Part shown: in pieces, positions 17,951 through 60,207 of the stretch | How the letters are laid out: the number at the start of each line of letters is the position of its first letter | Position numbering within the stretch: the first letter of the stretch is position 1 | Assembly: GCF_056746865.1 (NCBI RefSeq) | Contig: NZ_CM163382.1 | Direction: 5' to 3' (one strand) | Length of the DNA: 64,000 bases | The notes under the pieces: generated by a model | What the model was told of the DNA's origin: nothing | The model's input: only the letters and a program-made list of their open reading frames with translations | Database searches by the model: none | Made by a program: the position numbers and the translations under genes

Positions 17951-18037
17951 TGGTGCGAGGGGGGGGACTTGAACCCCCACGTCCGTAAGAACACTAACAC
18001 CTGAAGCTAGCGCGTCTACCAATTCCGCCACCTTCGC
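17951..18037 (-). tRNA. leuP: tRNA-Leu (anticodon CAG), copy 2 of 3; differs from the other two copies at one position in the variable arm
   Basis: Same 87-nt sequence except plus-strand A instead of G in GTCCGTAAG[A]ACAC, a C-to-U change in the tRNA variable-arm stem. Confidence 0.93.
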
Positions 18038-26640: not shown

Positions 26641-27504
26641 TCACAAATATAGCGCCGGAAATATTAACCGGCTCACCCCGCGCACCTTTAACGCATCAGC
26701 CAATGGCTCAACGTCTTCCGGCGTGGCACTCGGCCAGCTTTGCGCCTCGCCATACACGCCGTGGGCATGAAACGCGTTCAGGCGTACCGGAACATCGCCA
26801 AGTCCCTTGATAAACGCCGCCAGCTCATCGATGTGTTGCAAATAATCCACCTGGCCTGGGATTACCAGCAAACGCAGTTCCGCCAGCTTGCCGCGCTCGG
26901 CAAGCAAACAGATGCTGCGCTTAATCTGCTGATTATCGCGTCCGGTTAATTGCTGATGACATTCGCTCCCCCACGCTTTGAGATCGAGCATTGCGCCGTC
27001 GCACACCGGGAGTAATTTTTCCCAGCCGGTTTCGCTCAACATACCGTTACTGTCCACCAGACAGGTGAGATGGCACAGTTGCGGATCGTTTTTGATGGCA
27101 GTAAACAACGCCACCACAAACGGCAGCTGGGTCGTGGCTTCGCCGCCGCTTACCGTTATCCCTTCAATAAACAGCACCGCTTTGCGGATATGGCTAAGCA
27201 CCTCGTCCACGCTCATGGATTGCGCCATCGGCGTGGCATGTTGTGGACACATCTTCAGGCAGGTATCACATTGCTCGCAAACCACAGCGTTCCACACCAC
27301 TTTGCCGTTAACAATCTGCAACGCCTGATGCGGACACTGCGGCACGCACTCTCCGCAGTCATTGCAGCGTCCCATCGTCCACGGATTGTGACAGTTTTTG
27401 CAGCGCAGATTGCAGCCCTGCAAAAACAGAGCCAGACGACTGCCTGGCCCGTCAACGCAGGAGAAGGGGATAATCTTACTGACTAAAGCGCATCTGCTGT
27501 TCAT
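26641..27504 (-). CDS. yjjW: glycyl-radical enzyme activating enzyme (radical SAM plus two ferredoxin-like 4Fe-4S motifs)
   Basis: 287-aa [11 protein letters not shown] radical-SAM cluster motif, plus [12 protein letters not shown] and [12 protein letters not shown]. Confidence 0.88.
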
Positions 27505-29026
27505 GGCTTATCACGCGCGGCTGGCGTTCCAGAATACGAGTGTTGCGTGCGGCTTCTTCTCCCAGCCAGGTGGTGTTGGTGCGTGAACCTTCGGCGCGAT
27601 ATTTTTCTAAATCCGACAAACGCACCATATAACCGGTAACGCGAACCAGATCGTTACCGCTGACATTGGCGGTAAATTCACGCATTCCGGCTTTAAAGGC
27701 ACCGAGGCAAAGCTGTACCAGTGCCTGCGGGTTACGTTTGATGGTTTCGTCGAGCGTCAGAATGTCGCTGATGCCGGAATAATAATAAGCATGATGCGGG
27801 GCGACAGTTTGCAGATGAGTAATCGGATCTGGCTCATCACCATACGGCAAACGCGCGCCCGGCGTGGTGCCGATATCAGAACTGATCCCCGACTGTGCGT
27901 GTAACATGGCGCGTTTTTGCCAGCCATATTTCACGGGGGTATTGGCGACAAACTCCGCCAGTTGTGCGCTGATGCGATAACCCACTTCATTTGCGGCGGC
28001 TTCTTTACCGTAGCGCGCGGCAATCCCATCTTTCTCGCACAGCAAGTTAACTGCTTCCGCCAGCCCATACATGCCAAACATTGGCACAAAACGTTCAGGG
28101 TTAATCAGCCCTTCTTTCACCAGGAAGCTATTCTCAAAGAAGTGTGATTGTTGATAGAGGAATTCACACCGCGCATCGATGATGGCGATCTGCTGCTGGC
28201 AGTAGTGCGGTAGAGTGCGCGTAAAGAAGTCATCCAGCGATTCACTGCGCTCGGCAATGGCTTTCAGGTTAAGGCGTACCAGCGTGCTGCCACCACCCGC
28301 CAGCGGCAGTGAGTTGTAACAGCTCACAATCCCGTAGCCCCCTTTTGTGAAAATTTTATCATGCACCGGACCGTTGGCGATGTGCGGTTTGCTACATTCG
28401 CAGATGTTTTTCGCCACTTCCAGCAGCAGATCATCAGGGGTGATTTCAGGATCGTAGATAAAGGTCAGGTTCGGTGAAACCTGCTTCAGCTCTGCATCTG
28501 CACGTAAGATTGCACGGGTGATGGGCGAATCAGACGGGCCGATATTGGCGTGCATAAAGGCGTCTGGCAGGGTTCTGTCGAGGTAACGCCAGAAACGTTT
28601 TATTCGAATATCGATCTCGTCCTGTGTTAGAATTCTAACATACGGCTGCAACAACGCATCCAGTTGCCCCAGGTAGACCGGCATCGATGTGACCGATGGT
28701 ACGTGGTGGTAAAGAATGGTCAGCAGAGAGAGTGCATCATCAAGATCTTTCGCGCCTTCCAGCTCCAGCCATTCGGAACCGTTCGCCAGAAAACGGGCGT
28801 AATCGGGTAAGACATAGCGCGGTTTGTACGGCGCATGACCTTCAAACATATCGCAGATTACACCCTCATCCAGCGCGCGGCGGGCTTCGGCAGGAAGCTG
28901 CGGATAAGGCAGATTGTTTTCTGCTTCCAGCGCCAGAAAATGGCGCTTCTGCTCCGGGCTAAGTACCGGGCTGGTGACAATTTGCTGGCAACGTTGTTGC
29001 AGTGCAATTTCATGAGAAGTGGGCAT
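27476..29026 (-). CDS. yjjI: glycyl radical enzyme-like protein YjjI (DUF3029), substrate unknown
   Basis: 516-aa ORF; C-terminal RVTGY resembles the glycyl radical RVSGY motif; 29-bp overlap with yjjW. Confidence 0.85.
28625..28640. promoter_or_regulatory. DeoR operator (perfect palindrome TGTTAGAATTCTAACA), deo O1-like, located inside the yjjI coding sequence
   Basis: Perfect 16-bp palindrome read from sequence; 599 bp upstream of the second site, matching the known O1-O2 spacing. Confidence 0.75.
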
Positions 29027-29223
29027 CTTCTTTTCCTTTTATGCCGAAGGTGATGCGCCATTGTAAGAAGTTTCGTGATGTTCACTTTGATCCTGATGCG
29101 TTTGCCACCACTGACGCATTCATTTGAAAGTGAATTATTTGAACCAGATCGCATTACAGTGATGCAAACTTGTAAGTAGATTTCCTTAATTGTGATGTAT
29201 ATCGAAGTGTGTTGCGGAGTAGA

Positions 29224-29239
29224 TGTTAGAATACTAACA
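29224..29239. promoter_or_regulatory. DeoR operator (TGTTAGAATACTAACA), deo O2-like, about 45 bp upstream of deoC start
   Basis: 15/16 palindrome read from sequence. Confidence 0.75.
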
Positions 29240-29283: not shown

Positions 29284-30063
29284 ATGACTGATCTGAAAGC
29301 AAGCAGCCTGCGTGCACTGAAATTGATGGACCTGACCACCCTGAATGACGACGACACCGACGAGAAAGTGATCGCCCTGTGTCATCAGGCCAAAACTCCG
29401 GTCGGCAATACCGCCGCTATCTGTATCTATCCTCGCTTTATCCCGATTGCTCGCAAAACGCTGAAAGAGCAGGGTACCCCGGAAATCCGTATCGCTACGG
29501 TAACCAACTTCCCACACGGTAACGACGACATCGACATCGCGCTGGCAGAAACCCGTGCGGCAATCGCCTACGGTGCCGATGAAGTTGACGTGGTGTTCCC
29601 GTACCGCGCGCTGATGGCGGGTAACGAGCAGGTTGGTTTTGACCTGGTGAAAGCCTGTAAAGAGGCTTGCGCAGCGGCTAACGTACTGCTGAAAGTGATC
29701 ATCGAAACCGGCGAACTGAAAGACGAAGCGCTGATCCGCAAAGCGTCTGAAATCTCTATCAAAGCGGGTGCTGACTTCATCAAAACCTCTACCGGTAAAG
29801 TGGCAGTGAACGCGACGCCGGAAAGCGCGCGCATCATGATGGAAGTGATCCGCGACATGGGCGTAGAAAAAACCGTTGGTTTCAAACCGGCGGGCGGCGT
29901 GCGTACTGCGGAAGATGCGCAGAAATATCTCGCCATCGCAGATGAACTGTTCGGCGCTGACTGGGCTGATGCGCGTCACTACCGCTTTGGCGCTTCCAGC
30001 CTGCTGGCAAGCCTGCTGAAAGCGCTGGGCCACGGCGACGGTAAGAGCGCAAGCAGCTACTAA
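29284..30063 (+). CDS. deoC: deoxyribose-phosphate aldolase
   Basis: ORF-track frame begins at TTG 29260; start trimmed to ATG 29284 ([20 protein letters not shown], 259 aa). Confidence 0.92.
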
Positions 30064-30288: not shown

Positions 30289-31611
30289 TTGTTTCTCGCA
30301 CAAGAAATTATTCGTAAAAAACGTGATGGTCATGCGCTGAGCGATGAAGAAATTCGTTTCTTTATCAACGGCATTCGCGACAACACTATCTCCGAAGGGC
30401 AGATTGCCGCCCTCGCGATGACCATTTTCTTCCACGATATGACAATGCCTGAGCGTGTCTCGCTGACCATGGCGATGCGAGATTCAGGAACCGTTCTCGA
30501 CTGGAAAAGCCTGCATCTGAATGGCCCAATTGTTGATAAACACTCCACCGGTGGCGTCGGCGATGTGACTTCGCTGATGTTGGGGCCGATGGTCGCAGCC
30601 TGCGGCGGCTATATTCCGATGATCTCCGGTCGCGGCCTCGGTCATACTGGCGGTACGCTCGACAAACTGGAATCCATTCCTGGCTTCGACATTTTCCCGG
30701 ATGACAACCGTTTCCGCGAAATTATTAAAGACGTCGGCGTGGCGATTATCGGTCAGACCAGCTCACTGGCTCCGGCGGATAAACGTTTCTACGCGACCCG
30801 TGATATTACCGCAACCGTGGACTCCATCCCGCTGATCACTGCCTCGATTCTGGCGAAGAAACTGGCGGAAGGTCTGGACGCGCTGGTGATGGACGTGAAA
30901 GTGGGTAGCGGCGCGTTTATGCCGACCTACGAACTCTCTGAAGCCCTTGCCGAAGCGATTGTTGGCGTGGCTAACGGCGCTGGCGTGCGCACCACCGCGC
31001 TGCTCACCGACATGAATCAGGTACTGGCCTCCAGTGCAGGTAACGCGGTTGAGGTTCGTGAAGCAGTGCAGTTCCTGACGGGAGAATATCGTAACCCGCG
31101 TCTGTTTGATGTCACGATGGCGCTGTGCGTGGAGATGCTGATCTCCGGCAAACTGGCGAAAGATGACGCCGAAGCACGCGCGAAATTGCAGGCGGTGCTG
31201 GACAACGGTAAAGCGGCAGAAGTCTTTGGTCGTATGGTAGCGGCACAAAAAGGCCCAACCGACTTCGTTGAGAACTACGCGAAGTATCTGCCGACAGCGA
31301 TGCTGACGAAAGCAGTCTATGCTGATACCGAAGGTTTTGTCAGTGAAATGGATACCCGCGCGCTGGGGATGGCAGTGGTTGCAATGGGCGGCGGACGCCG
31401 TCAGGCATCTGACACCATCGATTACAGCGTCGGCTTTACTGATATGGCGCGTCTGGGCGACCAGGTAGACGGTCAGCGTCCGCTGGCGGTTATCCACGCG
31501 AAAGACGAAAACAGCTGGCAGGAAGCGGCGAAAGCGGTGAAAGCGGCAATTAAACTTGCCGATAAAGCACCGGAAAGCACACCAACTGTCTATCGCCGTA
31601 TCAGCGAATAA
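30289..31611 (+). CDS. deoA: thymidine phosphorylase
   Basis: 440-aa ORF (TTG start) [22 protein letters not shown]... Confidence 0.92.
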
Positions 31612-31641: not shown

Positions 31642-32886
<1,245 letters not shown>

Positions 32887-32942: not shown

Positions 32943-33662
32943 ATGGCTACCCCACACATTAATGCAGAAATGGGCGATTTCGCTGACGTAGTTTTGATGC
33001 CAGGCGACCCGCTGCGTGCGAAGTATATTGCTGAAACTTTCCTTGAAGATGCCCGTGAAGTGAACAACGTTCGCGGTATGCTGGGCTTCACCGGTACTTA
33101 CAAAGGCCGCAAAATTTCCGTAATGGGTCACGGTATGGGTATCCCGTCCTGCTCCATCTACACCAAAGAACTGATCACCGATTTCGGCGTGAAGAAAATT
33201 ATCCGCGTAGGCTCCTGTGGCGCTGTTCTGCCACACGTAAAACTGCGCGACGTCGTTATCGGTATGGGTGCCTGCACCGATTCCAAAGTTAACCGCATCC
33301 GTTTTAAAGACCATGACTTTGCCGCTATCGCTGACTTTGACATGGTGCGTAACGCAGTAGATGCAGCTAAAGCACTGGGCATTGATGCTCGCGTTGGTAA
33401 CCTGTTCTCCGCTGACCTGTTCTACTCTCCGGACGGCGAAATGTTCGACGTGATGGAAAAATACGGCATCCTCGGCGTGGAAATGGAAGCGGCTGGTATC
33501 TACGGCGTCGCTGCAGAATTTGGCGCGAAAGCCCTGACCATCTGCACCGTGTCTGACCACATCCGTACTCACGAGCAGACCACTGCCGCTGAGCGTCAGA
33601 CCACCTTCAACGACATGATCAAAATCGCACTGGAATCCGTTCTGCTGGGCGATAAAGAGTAA
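32943..33662 (+). CDS. deoD: purine nucleoside phosphorylase
   Basis: ORF-track frame 32886..33662; start trimmed to ATG 32943 ([31 protein letters not shown], 239 aa). Confidence 0.92.
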
Positions 33663-56810: not shown

Positions 56811-59273
56811 ATGCGAGTGTTGAAGTTCGGCGGTACATCAGTGGCAAATGCAGAACGTTTTCTGCGGGTTGCCGATATTCTGGAAAGCAATGCCAGGCAG
56901 GGGCAGGTGGCCACCGTCCTCTCTGCCCCCGCCAAAATCACCAACCACCTGGTGGCGATGATTGAAAAAACCATTAGCGGCCAGGATGCTTTACCCAATA
57001 TCAGCGATGCCGAACGTATTTTTGCCGAACTTCTGACGGGACTCGCCGCCGCCCAGCCGGGATTCCCGCTGGCGCAACTGAAAACTTTCGTCGACCAGGA
57101 ATTTGCCCAAATAAAACATGTCCTGCATGGCATTAGTTTGTTGGGGCAGTGCCCGGATAGCATCAACGCTGCGCTGATTTGCCGTGGCGAGAAAATGTCG
57201 ATCGCCATTATGGCCGGCGTATTAGAAGCGCGCGGTCACAACGTTACCGTTATCGATCCGGTCGAAAAACTGCTGGCAGTGGGGCATTACCTCGAATCTA
57301 CCGTCGATATTGCTGAGTCCACCCGCCGTATTGCGGCAAGTCGTATTCCGGCTGATCACATGGTGCTGATGGCAGGTTTCACCGCCGGTAATGAAAAAGG
57401 CGAACTGGTGGTGCTTGGACGCAACGGTTCCGACTACTCTGCTGCGGTGCTGGCTGCCTGTTTACGCGCCGATTGTTGCGAGATTTGGACAGACGTTGAC
57501 GGGGTCTATACCTGCGACCCGCGTCAGGTGCCCGATGCGAGGTTGTTGAAGTCGATGTCCTACCAGGAAGCGATGGAGCTTTCCTACTTCGGCGCTAAAG
57601 TTCTTCACCCCCGCACCATTACCCCCATCGCCCAGTTCCAGATCCCTTGCCTGATTAAAAATACCGGAAATCCTCAAGCACCAGGTACGCTCATTGGTGC
57701 CAGCCGTGATGAAGACGAATTACCGGTCAAGGGCATTTCCAATCTGAATAACATGGCAATGTTCAGCGTTTCCGGCCCGGGGATGAAAGGAATGGTTGGC
57801 ATGGCGGCGCGCGTCTTTGCAGCGATGTCACGCGCCCGTATTTCCGTGGTGCTGATTACGCAATCATCTTCCGAATACAGTATCAGTTTCTGCGTTCCAC
57901 AAAGCGACTGTGTGCGAGCTGAACGGGCAATGCAGGAAGAGTTCTACCTGGAACTGAAAGAAGGCTTACTGGAGCCGCTGGCAGTGACGGAACGGCTGGC
58001 CATTATCTCGGTGGTAGGTGATGGTATGCGCACCTTGCGTGGGATCTCGGCGAAATTCTTTGCCGCGCTGGCCCGCGCCAATATCAACATTGTCGCCATT
58101 GCTCAGGGATCTTCTGAACGCTCAATCTCTGTCGTGGTAAATAACGATGATGCGACCACTGGCGTGCGCGTTACTCATCAGATGCTGTTCAATACCGATC
58201 AGGTTATCGAAGTGTTTGTGATTGGCGTCGGTGGCGTTGGCGGTGCGCTGCTGGAGCAACTGAAGCGTCAGCAAAGCTGGCTGAAGAATAAACATATCGA
58301 CTTACGTGTCTGTGGTGTTGCCAACTCGAAGGCTCTGCTCACCAATGTACATGGCCTTAATCTGGAAAACTGGCAGGAAGAACTGGCGCAAGCCAAAGAG
58401 CCGTTTAATCTCGGGCGCTTAATTCGCCTCGTGAAAGAATATCATCTGCTGAACCCGGTCATTGTTGACTGCACCTCCAGCCAGGCAGTGGCGGATCAAT
58501 ATGCCGACTTCCTGCGCGAAGGTTTCCACGTTGTTACGCCGAACAAAAAGGCTAACACCTCGTCGATGGATTACTACCATCTGTTGCGTCATGCGGCGGA
58601 AAAATCGCGGCGTAAATTCCTCTATGACACCAACGTTGGGGCTGGATTACCGGTTATTGAGAACCTGCAAAATCTACTCAATGCAGGTGATGAATTGATG
58701 AAGTTCTCCGGCATTCTTTCTGGTTCGCTTTCTTATATCTTCGGCAAGTTAGACGAAGGCATGAGTTTCTCCGAGGCGACCACGCTGGCGCGGGAAATGG
58801 GTTATACCGAACCGGACCCGCGAGATGATCTTTCTGGTATGGATGTGGCGCGTAAACTATTGATTCTCGCTCGTGAAACGGGACGTGAACTGGAGCTGGC
58901 GGATATTGAAATTGAACCTGTGCTGCCCGCAGAGTTTAACGCCGAGGGTGATGTTGCCGCTTTTATGGCGAATCTGTCACAGCTCGACGATCTCTTTGCC
59001 GCGCGCGTGGCGAAGGCCCGTGATGAAGGAAAAGTTTTGCGCTATGTTGGCAATATTGATGAAGATGGCGTCTGCCGCGTGAAGATTGCTGAAGTGGATG
59101 GCAACGATCCGCTGTTCAAAGTGAAAAACGGCGAAAACGCCCTGGCCTTCTATAGCCACTATTATCAGCCGCTGCCGTTGGTGCTGCGCGGATATGGTGC
59201 GGGCAATGACGTTACAGCTGCCGGTGTTTTTGCCGATCTGCTACGTACCCTCTCATGGAAGTTAGGAGTCTGA
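56811..59273 (+). CDS. thrA: bifunctional aspartokinase I / homoserine dehydrogenase I
   Basis: ORF-track frame 56769..59273; start trimmed to ATG 56811 ([20 protein letters not shown], 820 aa). Confidence 0.95.
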
Positions 59274-59274
59274 C

Positions 59275-60207
59275 ATGGTTAAAGTTTATGCCCCGGCTTC
59301 CAGTGCCAATATGAGCGTCGGGTTTGATGTGCTCGGGGCGGCGGTGACACCCGTTGATGGTGCATTGCTCGGAGATGTAGTCACGGTTGAGGCGGCAGAG
59401 ACATTCAGTCTCAATAACCTCGGACGCTTTGCCGATAAGCTGCCGTCAGAACCTCGGGAAAATATCGTTTATCAGTGTTGGGAGCGTTTTTGCCAGGAGC
59501 TGGGTAAGCAAATTCCAGTGGCGATGGCCCTGGAAAAGAATATGCCGATCGGCTCGGGCTTAGGCTCCAGCGCCTGCTCAGTGGTCGCGGCGCTGATGGC
59601 GATGAATGAACACTGCGGCAAGCCGCTTAATGACACCCGTTTGCTGGCTTTGATGGGCGAGCTGGAAGGGCGTATCTCCGGCAGCATTCATTACGACAAC
59701 GTGGCACCGTGTTTTCTTGGTGGTATGCAGTTGATGATCGAAGAAAACGACATCATCAGCCAGCAAGTGCCAGGGTTTGATGAGTGGCTGTGGGTGCTGG
59801 CGTATCCGGGGATTAAAGTCTCGACGGCAGAAGCCAGGGCTATTTTACCGGCGCAGTATCGCCGCCAGGATTGCATTGCGCACGGGCGACATCTGGCAGG
59901 CTTTATTCACGCCTGCTATTCCCGTCAGCCTGAGCTTGCCGCGAAGCTGATGAAAGATGTTATCGCTGAACCCTACCGTGAACGGTTACTGCCAGGCTTC
60001 CGGCAGGCGCGGCAGGCGGTCGCGGAAATCGGCGCGGTAGCGAGCGGTATCTCCGGCTCCGGCCCGACTTTGTTCGCTCTGTGTGACAAGCCGGATACCG
60101 CCCAGCGCGTTGCCGACTGGTTGGGTAAGAACTACCTGCAAAATCAGGAAGGTTTTGTTCATATTTGCCGGCTGGATACGGCGGGCGCACGAGTACTGGA
60201 AAACTAA
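59275..60207 (+). CDS. thrB: homoserine kinase
   Basis: 310-aa [27 protein letters not shown]...; GHMP kinase motif [10 protein letters not shown]. Confidence 0.95.

Follow-up and report, generated by a model that had tools for sequence, protein, structure and literature searches.

Why should the recognition sequence of a repressor be spelled out in the codons of a neighbouring gene that is read in the opposite direction, and is it kept there as codons, as an operator or as both? The question arises in a 64-kb stretch of DNA (64,000 nucleotides, referred to throughout as the window), in which two 16-bp palindromes stand 599 bp apart at the head of the deo operon, the upstream one lying within the divergent gene yjjI. 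A preceding sequence-only reading of the window had taken the pair to be DeoR operators at the spacing documented for DNA looping, and had argued that the upstream operator is constrained both as a string of codons and as a binding site. Combining the annotation of the locus with a comparison of yjjI loci across the Enterobacterales, this analysis provides an assessment of the operator set, of the promoters and cyclic AMP receptor protein (CRP) sites that accompany it, and of the explanations that might be offered for its conservation within a gene.

The locus and its genes

The region between positions 27400 and 29700 is 95-100% identical to 5423 of 5426 complete Escherichia coli genomes, and the locus is the E. 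coli yjjW-yjjI/deoCABD region. For an E. coli stretch of identical sequence, RefSeq places yjjW and yjjI on the minus strand, and deoC, deoA, deoB and deoD on the plus strand. The 516-aa open reading frame of yjjI (27476-29026, minus strand) encodes a glycyl radical enzyme of the YjjI family, as annotated by RefSeq and as matched by Pfam (YjjI-like, PF11230, E = 3.9e-220). Downstream of yjjI, and overlapping it, is yjjW (26641-27504, minus strand), whose product is identified by its open reading frame, RefSeq and Pfam as a radical-SAM activase. On the plus strand, deoC (29284-30063; Pfam PF01791) is the first gene of deoCABD and is followed by deoA (30289-31611), deoB (31663-32886) and deoD (32943-33662). 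Based on the RefSeq annotation of the identical E. coli stretch and the Pfam match to DeoC, the DeoR sites are situated directly upstream of these four genes; two of the operators, O1 and OE, as well as the promoter deoP1, are hosted by yjjI in antisense orientation. One database protein (P0004; 574 aa, from a 2.9-kb contig) has both YjjI-like (PF11230) and DeoC (PF01791) Pfam matches. Unlike in this fused protein, yjjI and deoC are divergent in E. coli, and the YjjI-DeoC fusion is probably an artefact of assembly or gene calling.

The main operators, O1 and O2

O1 (28625-28640, no strand assigned) is the perfect 16-bp palindrome TGTTAGAATTCTAACA. It falls on codons 129-134 of yjjI, at offsets 386-401 of the coding sequence, which read TAT GTT AGA ATT CTA ACA and encode YVRILT. 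O2 (29224-29239, plus strand; TGTTAGAATACTAACA) is located between yjjI and deoC, preceding the start codon of the latter by 45 bp, and its start is 599 bp from that of O1 (28625 to 29224). When compared with the consensus palindrome, of the type TGTTAGAA.TTCTAACA, O1 matches at 16 of 16 positions and O2 at 15 of 16, the corresponding figure for the third site, OE, being 12 of 16. With three or fewer mismatches to the perfect palindrome allowed, O1 and O2 are the sole sites in the 64 kb; the number expected from dinucleotide-preserving shuffles is 0.15, and two or more sites were obtained in 1 of 100 shuffles.

The palindromes bound by DeoR have been given as TGTTAGAA-TACTAACA or TGTTAGAA-TTCTAACA (PMC5326754), and the O1 and O2 16-mers are identical to the palindromes quoted there. 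Furthermore, deoP1 and deoP2 are described as a pair of DeoR-repressed promoters, separated by 599 bp, that looping locks in a single operation (PMC3334521). The palindromes at 28625 and 29224 are, respectively, O1 and O2, the DeoR operators published for E. coli deoCABD. Much of the sequence-only reading is borne out here, in that both 16-mers exist at the two coordinates, the 599-bp spacing agrees with the promoter distance in PMC3334521, and the operator that it had placed about 390 bp inside the opposite-strand yjjI frame begins at offset 386 of that frame.

A third operator upstream

That reading went astray in one respect, having stated that a third, further-upstream site could not be found by eye. 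When the search was relaxed to four mismatches, five palindrome sites were obtained in the 64-kb window, and one of these, TGTGAAAATTTTATCA at 28346-28361 (plus strand; 12 of 16 to the consensus), is a weaker, third DeoR operator, OE. It occupies yjjI codons 222-227 (CAT GAT AAA ATT TTC ACA, encoding HDKIFT) and is upstream of both main operators, by 279 bp in the case of O1 and by 878 bp in that of O2. The third deo operator has reportedly been placed 279 bp upstream of O1 by Valentin-Hansen et al. in 1986 and Amouyal et al. in 1989, and the site at 28346-28361 is at that distance. Across lineages, OE co-occurs with O1 and O2, and it is missing where O1 and O2 are missing. Looping at deo has been reviewed as extending 'up to 900 bp naturally', with DeoR being a 6- to 8-mer (PMC4217526), and the 878 bp between OE and O2 is consistent with natural looping up to about 900 bp. 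Judging from the DNA, the third, upstream operator of the deoCABD set is present. Two more 12/16 matches in the window, at 17984-17999 (CGTAAGAACACTAACA) and 59260-59275 (AGTTAGGAGTCTGACA), are isolated and were, for that reason, treated as chance matches rather than as DeoR operators.

The promoters deoP1 and deoP2 and their CRP sites

A putative -10 hexamer for deoP1, TAGAAT, is present at 28628-28633 (plus strand) in the left half of O1, and the same hexamer, for deoP2, is present at 29227-29232 (plus strand) in the left half of O2, each being preceded by TGT in the manner of an extended -10 element in the case of deoP1 and likewise by TGT in that of deoP2. Since the operators and the promoters share the same spacing, each main operator would be placed over the -10 region of its promoter; O1 and O2 would, in other words, cover the -10 regions of deoP1 and deoP2, as has reportedly been published. 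Neither deoP1 nor deoP2 was called in a scan for consensus promoters, on account of their poor -35 regions. A conserved block, CGCCAGAAACGTTTTATTCG (28587-28606, plus strand), precedes the deoP1 -10 hexamer by 22-41 bp and spans yjjI codons 141-146. Across the 75 related species compared, only one other non-overlapping 16-nt window of yjjI is more conserved than this block. The block is probably the -35/upstream part of deoP1, although no good -35 hexamer is evident within it.

Tandem CRP sites are present upstream of deoP2. CRP site 1 (29191-29206, plus strand) has the sequence TGTGATGTATATCGAA, and the CRP-like site 2 (29138-29153, plus strand), 53 bp further upstream, has the sequence TTTGAACCAGATCGCA, which we assign to the second CRP site of deoP2, CytR acting between the two. 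Site 1 is identical to the motif TGTGATGTATATCGAA of a CRP ChIP-seq peak at yjjI/deoC (PMC4287617), and deoP2 is known for its tandem CRP sites, for activation by CRP and for anti-activation by CytR (PMC3454398). A further CRP ChIP-seq peak has been placed inside yjjI (PMC4287617). Its predicted site (28688-28703, TGTGACCGATGGTACG in the window) adjoins O1 and deoP1 and is 544 bp from the deoP2 CRP site. As an extra regulatory part, this site was rejected, its codons varying freely at synonymous positions, and the peak might be due to cross-linking by way of the DeoR loop and not to a CRP site under selection.

Conservation of the operators within yjjI

A scan of one genome per species yielded 80 Enterobacterales yjjI loci, 74 of which, together with E. 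coli, gave 75 sequences with deoC divergently adjacent to yjjI. At identical yjjI codons, O1 is perfect in 54 of the 80 loci, has one mismatch in 18 and has two in 4. O2 is recognizable with 1-3 mismatches in 60 of the 74 loci that hold the intergenic region, and, with Proteus left aside, 64 of the 76 loci have the identical OE 16-mer. In the 75 sequences, the six-codon mean of third-position entropy is lowest at O1 (0.047 bits, rank 1 of 511) and next lowest at OE (0.111, rank 2), as against a gene mean of 1.148, with the proviso that here, as for the ranks that follow, the species are related and the ranks do not represent independent samples. When entropy is calculated over 16-nt windows, OE is the lowest in yjjI (rank 1 of 1533), and it is followed, among the non-overlapping windows, by a block immediately upstream of the deoP1 -10 (codons 142-147) and by O1. 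That O1 is constrained as codons and as an operator, as had been claimed, therefore receives support from its having the lowest third-position entropy of all 511 six-codon windows; in the comparison with neighbouring yjjI codons that had been proposed along with the claim, O1 proved to be the most conserved at synonymous positions.

The flanking codons are free at synonymous sites, codon 128, for example, being CCA in 30 sequences, CCG in 29, CCT in 11 and CCC in 5. Within O1, even rare codons are kept, i.e. AGA131 in 53 of the 54 sequences with Arg at that position and CTA133 in 73 of 75, as compared with less retention of the control rare codons AGA151 (46/75) and CTA272 (24/75). The rare codons CGA141 (62/75) and ATA142 (72/73), which fall in 28601-28606, are also frozen; outgroups have CGC, CGG or AAA at codon 141 and TTA, CTG or ATG at codon 142. 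Codons 132-134, corresponding to the deoP1 -10 half of O1, are identical in 73-75 of the 75 sequences, and this half is invariant in the Enterobacteriaceae. In both O1 and O2, the left half in the deo sense, TGTTAGAA, which includes the -10 hexamer, is essentially invariant, and nearly all of the variation resides in the right halves, a pattern that would be expected were the left half used by RNA polymerase as well as by DeoR.

The O1-O2 spacing is not fixed at 599 bp, ranging from 567 to 675 bp across species. Among the 60 loci whose O2 has three or fewer mismatches, 51 have a spacing of 598-604 bp, and smaller groups are found at 589-592, 568 and 612 bp. The jumps in spacing, of about -10, -32 and +11 bp, approximate whole helical turns; they involve few, related lineages, and no conclusion was drawn from them. 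DeoR repression is said to respond only weakly to operator separation (Dandanell 1992).

Lineages without the operators

Four Proteus species have yjjIW without an adjacent deoC, the upstream genes being smp and serB; in one such locus (L078, 965-2771), yjjI is preceded by serB and smp. At the O1 position these species have 6-8 mismatches and at the OE position 11-12, and both codons and amino acids vary at the two places (YVG-E/N/S-LT and QDAVFG, respectively). In E. coli, smp and serB are located downstream of the deo operon, at a remove of a few genes. The Proteus neighbourhood is otherwise similar but has no deo operon, as a result of either an insertion in the one lineage or a loss or relocation in the other.

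YjjI proteins of greater divergence, at 65-72% identity, have PYVG-x-L-T/S at O1 and are hypervariable at OE (QQQAFD, HAGAFD, HAEFFA). Four distant lineages were compared at the level of their contigs. In L082, deoCAB is adjacent to yjjI and all three sites are present, O2 having two mismatches, O1 having one and OE being identical to that of E. coli. In L083, deoCAB is divergently adjacent to yjjI, and neither O1 nor OE is present, there being only an O2-like sequence with five mismatches. The L083 segment 2597-3000 contains two near-perfect CRP palindromes, TGTGATTTAAATCACT and TGTGATTAAAATCACA, and its deo operon may be under CRP/CytR control without DeoR looping. L084 and L085 are without deoC and without operator sites. 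In sum, Proteus, L083, L084 and L085 have 6-12 mismatches or no site at the O1 and OE positions, with ordinary variable codons and amino acids there. Because of these operator-free lineages, which are few, the freezing of codons can be said to track the operator set rather than the presence of YjjI or the mere adjacency of deoC. As regards other neighbours, a NupC-family gene is found at 5410-6687 in L082, at 5427-6704 in L083 and at 1647-2921 in L085, and in the last of these, Moellerella, it is directly upstream of yjjI-yjjW on the same strand.

Reading phase and the amino acids of YjjI

The consensus operator contains TAG and TAA, and it is free of stop codons in only one of three frames on either strand, where it is read as VRILT. 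The codon phase of O1 is accounted for by this, as the consensus operator is readable in one phase only. OE, at a distance of 279 bp (93 x 3), is in the same codon phase as O1, and its own sequence is stop-free in one further frame.

Residue 131, encoded at 28634-28636, is Gly (GGA) in Hafnia, Edwardsiella and L082 (loci L072, L073, L076, L077 and L082) as well as in the more distant YjjI proteins, and it is Arg or Lys (AGA or AAA) in the Enterobacteriaceae. With GGA at this codon the operator has one mismatch, and with AGA it is the perfect O1 palindrome. Gly appears to be the ancestral residue, and the operator may have driven the replacement by Arg or Lys. By inference, the operators would have shaped the amino acids of YjjI, both in this change from Gly131 to Arg/Lys and in the DKIFT peptide at OE. 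The view that the operators, embedded in an intact and conserved yjjI open reading frame, are under selection beyond what coding needs is well supported by the comparative pattern, which points to a second role for these codons.

Proposed mechanism

Multimers of DeoR occupy two or three operators simultaneously, loop out the 279-bp and 599-bp segments between them and block both deoP1 and deoP2; deoP2 also needs CRP and is anti-activated by CytR. DeoR has been reported to bind distant operators and to loop the DNA for full repression, being released by deoxyribose-5-phosphate (PMC5326754), and derepression or induction by deoxyribose-5-phosphate has also been noted elsewhere (PMC3258297). The best explanation for the observations is, with a high degree of confidence, that the palindromes are O1 and O2 of deoCABD, joined by the weaker OE, and that those in yjjI are under selection in two capacities, as codons and as DNA signals. 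At this locus, multimers of DeoR would bind OE, O1 and O2, forming single or double loops, and the bound DeoR would keep the -10 regions of the two promoters covered until the accumulation of deoxyribose-5-phosphate. With deoP1, O1 and OE positioned inside the divergent yjjI, these stretches are subject to selection in both capacities, and such dual selection has left synonymous sites and rare codons frozen. The DeoR operator system here is real, in all probability functional and already known.

Alternative explanations

Some of the conservation is indeed protein-driven, given that Y129, V130, T134 and the downstream KRFW motif are kept even in outgroups, and the 16-mers in the gene might be conserved for the sake of YjjI itself, e.g. 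as a protein motif, as rare codons that cause pausing or as mRNA structure, with the likeness to O2 being incidental. That is extremely unlikely, however, when positions 131-133 and 222-227 are occupied by different codons and residues in operator-free lineages, whose YjjI proteins are hypervariable in the OE region, when the sequence that has been frozen is none other than the DeoR palindrome of the literature (PMC5326754), and when no coding requirement explains the perfect 16-bp palindrome of O1. Another thought, confined to OE, is that it has been conserved not as a DeoR operator but as the extended -10 element (TGATAAAAT) of an internal, minus-strand promoter of yjjI. The consensus promoter scan did return a match overlapping OE (TCGCCA-16-TAAAAT with an upstream TG, 28380-28353, minus strand), but one match is what shuffles also produce (mean 0.9), its -35 codons (216-218) vary freely across species, and OE both stands at the reported distance from O1 and co-occurs with O1 and O2 across lineages. 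An internal promoter is thus very unlikely, and the match, the sole one of the scan, was rejected on the grounds that its -35 is not conserved. Although short palindromes do occur by chance, e.g. around an EcoRI site, two sites were found as opposed to the 0.15 expected, and they have published sequences at a published spacing and are conserved across about 75 species, all of which makes the probability of a chance origin negligible.

The remaining proposal would add to the repression of deoCABD rather than replace it, namely, that DeoR at O1 and OE, loops between O2, O1 and OE, and head-on transcription from deoP1 couple yjjIW to the availability of deoxynucleosides. The layout lends itself to such coupling, insofar as O1 and OE are in the transcribed region of yjjI, the yjjI start is inside the O1-O2 loop, and deoP1 transcription would run head-on through the yjjI promoter and the initial 386 nt of the gene. 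Genome neighbourhoods point the same way, with deoCAB adjoining yjjIW in most Enterobacterales and a NupC-family transporter gene doing so in L082, L083 and L085. Yet none of the papers searchable in full text mentions yjjI together with DeoR, yjjI is not mentioned in the supplements of a deo-focused transcriptome paper, and the synteny may be mere inherited neighbourhood. All told, this coupling is conceivable but unlikely. The neighbourhood of NupC-type and deoCAB genes hints that the chemistry of YjjI is nucleoside-related. It is a distinctly doubtful proposition that the orphan glycyl-radical operon yjjIW is under DeoR/deoxynucleoside control by way of enclosure in a loop, a block to elongation at O1/OE and head-on deoP1 transcription; were it true, the recurrence of yjjIW beside deoCABD and a NupC-type transporter would suggest a role for YjjI in the anaerobic metabolism of nucleosides or deoxyribose.

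Relationship to known systems and significance

The locus is not merely akin to the E. coli deoCABD region, with its OE, O1, O2 and tandem deoP1/deoP2, but is that system itself, as it has the same sequences, the same 599 bp between O1 and O2, an OE-like site 279 bp upstream, the same genes and the same CRP sites at deoP2. Beyond the known deo system, the present analysis ties the operators explicitly to the reading frame of yjjI and adds evidence, from a comparison of species, of a dual constraint. The yjjI reading frame was annotated only after the deo operators had been described, which was reportedly the work of Dandanell and Hammer in 1985, Valentin-Hansen et al. in 1986, Dandanell et al. 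in 1987 and Amouyal et al. in 1989. In having a repressor site within an open reading frame that cooperates by looping with a promoter-proximal site, and in having codons that carry a second layer of information, the system resembles lac O2 in lacZ and gal OI in galE; internal operators have also been mentioned for galS and deoR (PMC3334521). Unlike in all of these, the host open reading frame, yjjI, is a divergent neighbour and not part of the regulated operon or a repressor gene. Also unlike lac O2 and gal OI, yjjI holds an entire promoter, deoP1, with its primary operator as well as a second operator, both antisense. Elsewhere in the E. coli genome, outside the window, nupG and tsx P1 make use of the same repressor and palindromic recognition sequence (PMC5326754).

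The dual coding/operator constraint is well supported but unsurprising. O1, O2 and OE of DeoR are a founding example of repression at a distance by looping, and the present findings confirm this textbook biology without extending it. For methods that examine synonymous sites in search of regulatory elements hidden in genes, the locus offers a useful positive control, and it serves as a warning that recoding, codon-optimizing or deleting yjjI would affect deo regulation. It is, moreover, a clean natural example of overlapping codes, with a promoter and two operators lying antisense in the coding sequence of a neighbour, and with rare codons that have been frozen throughout the existence of the family Enterobacteriaceae.
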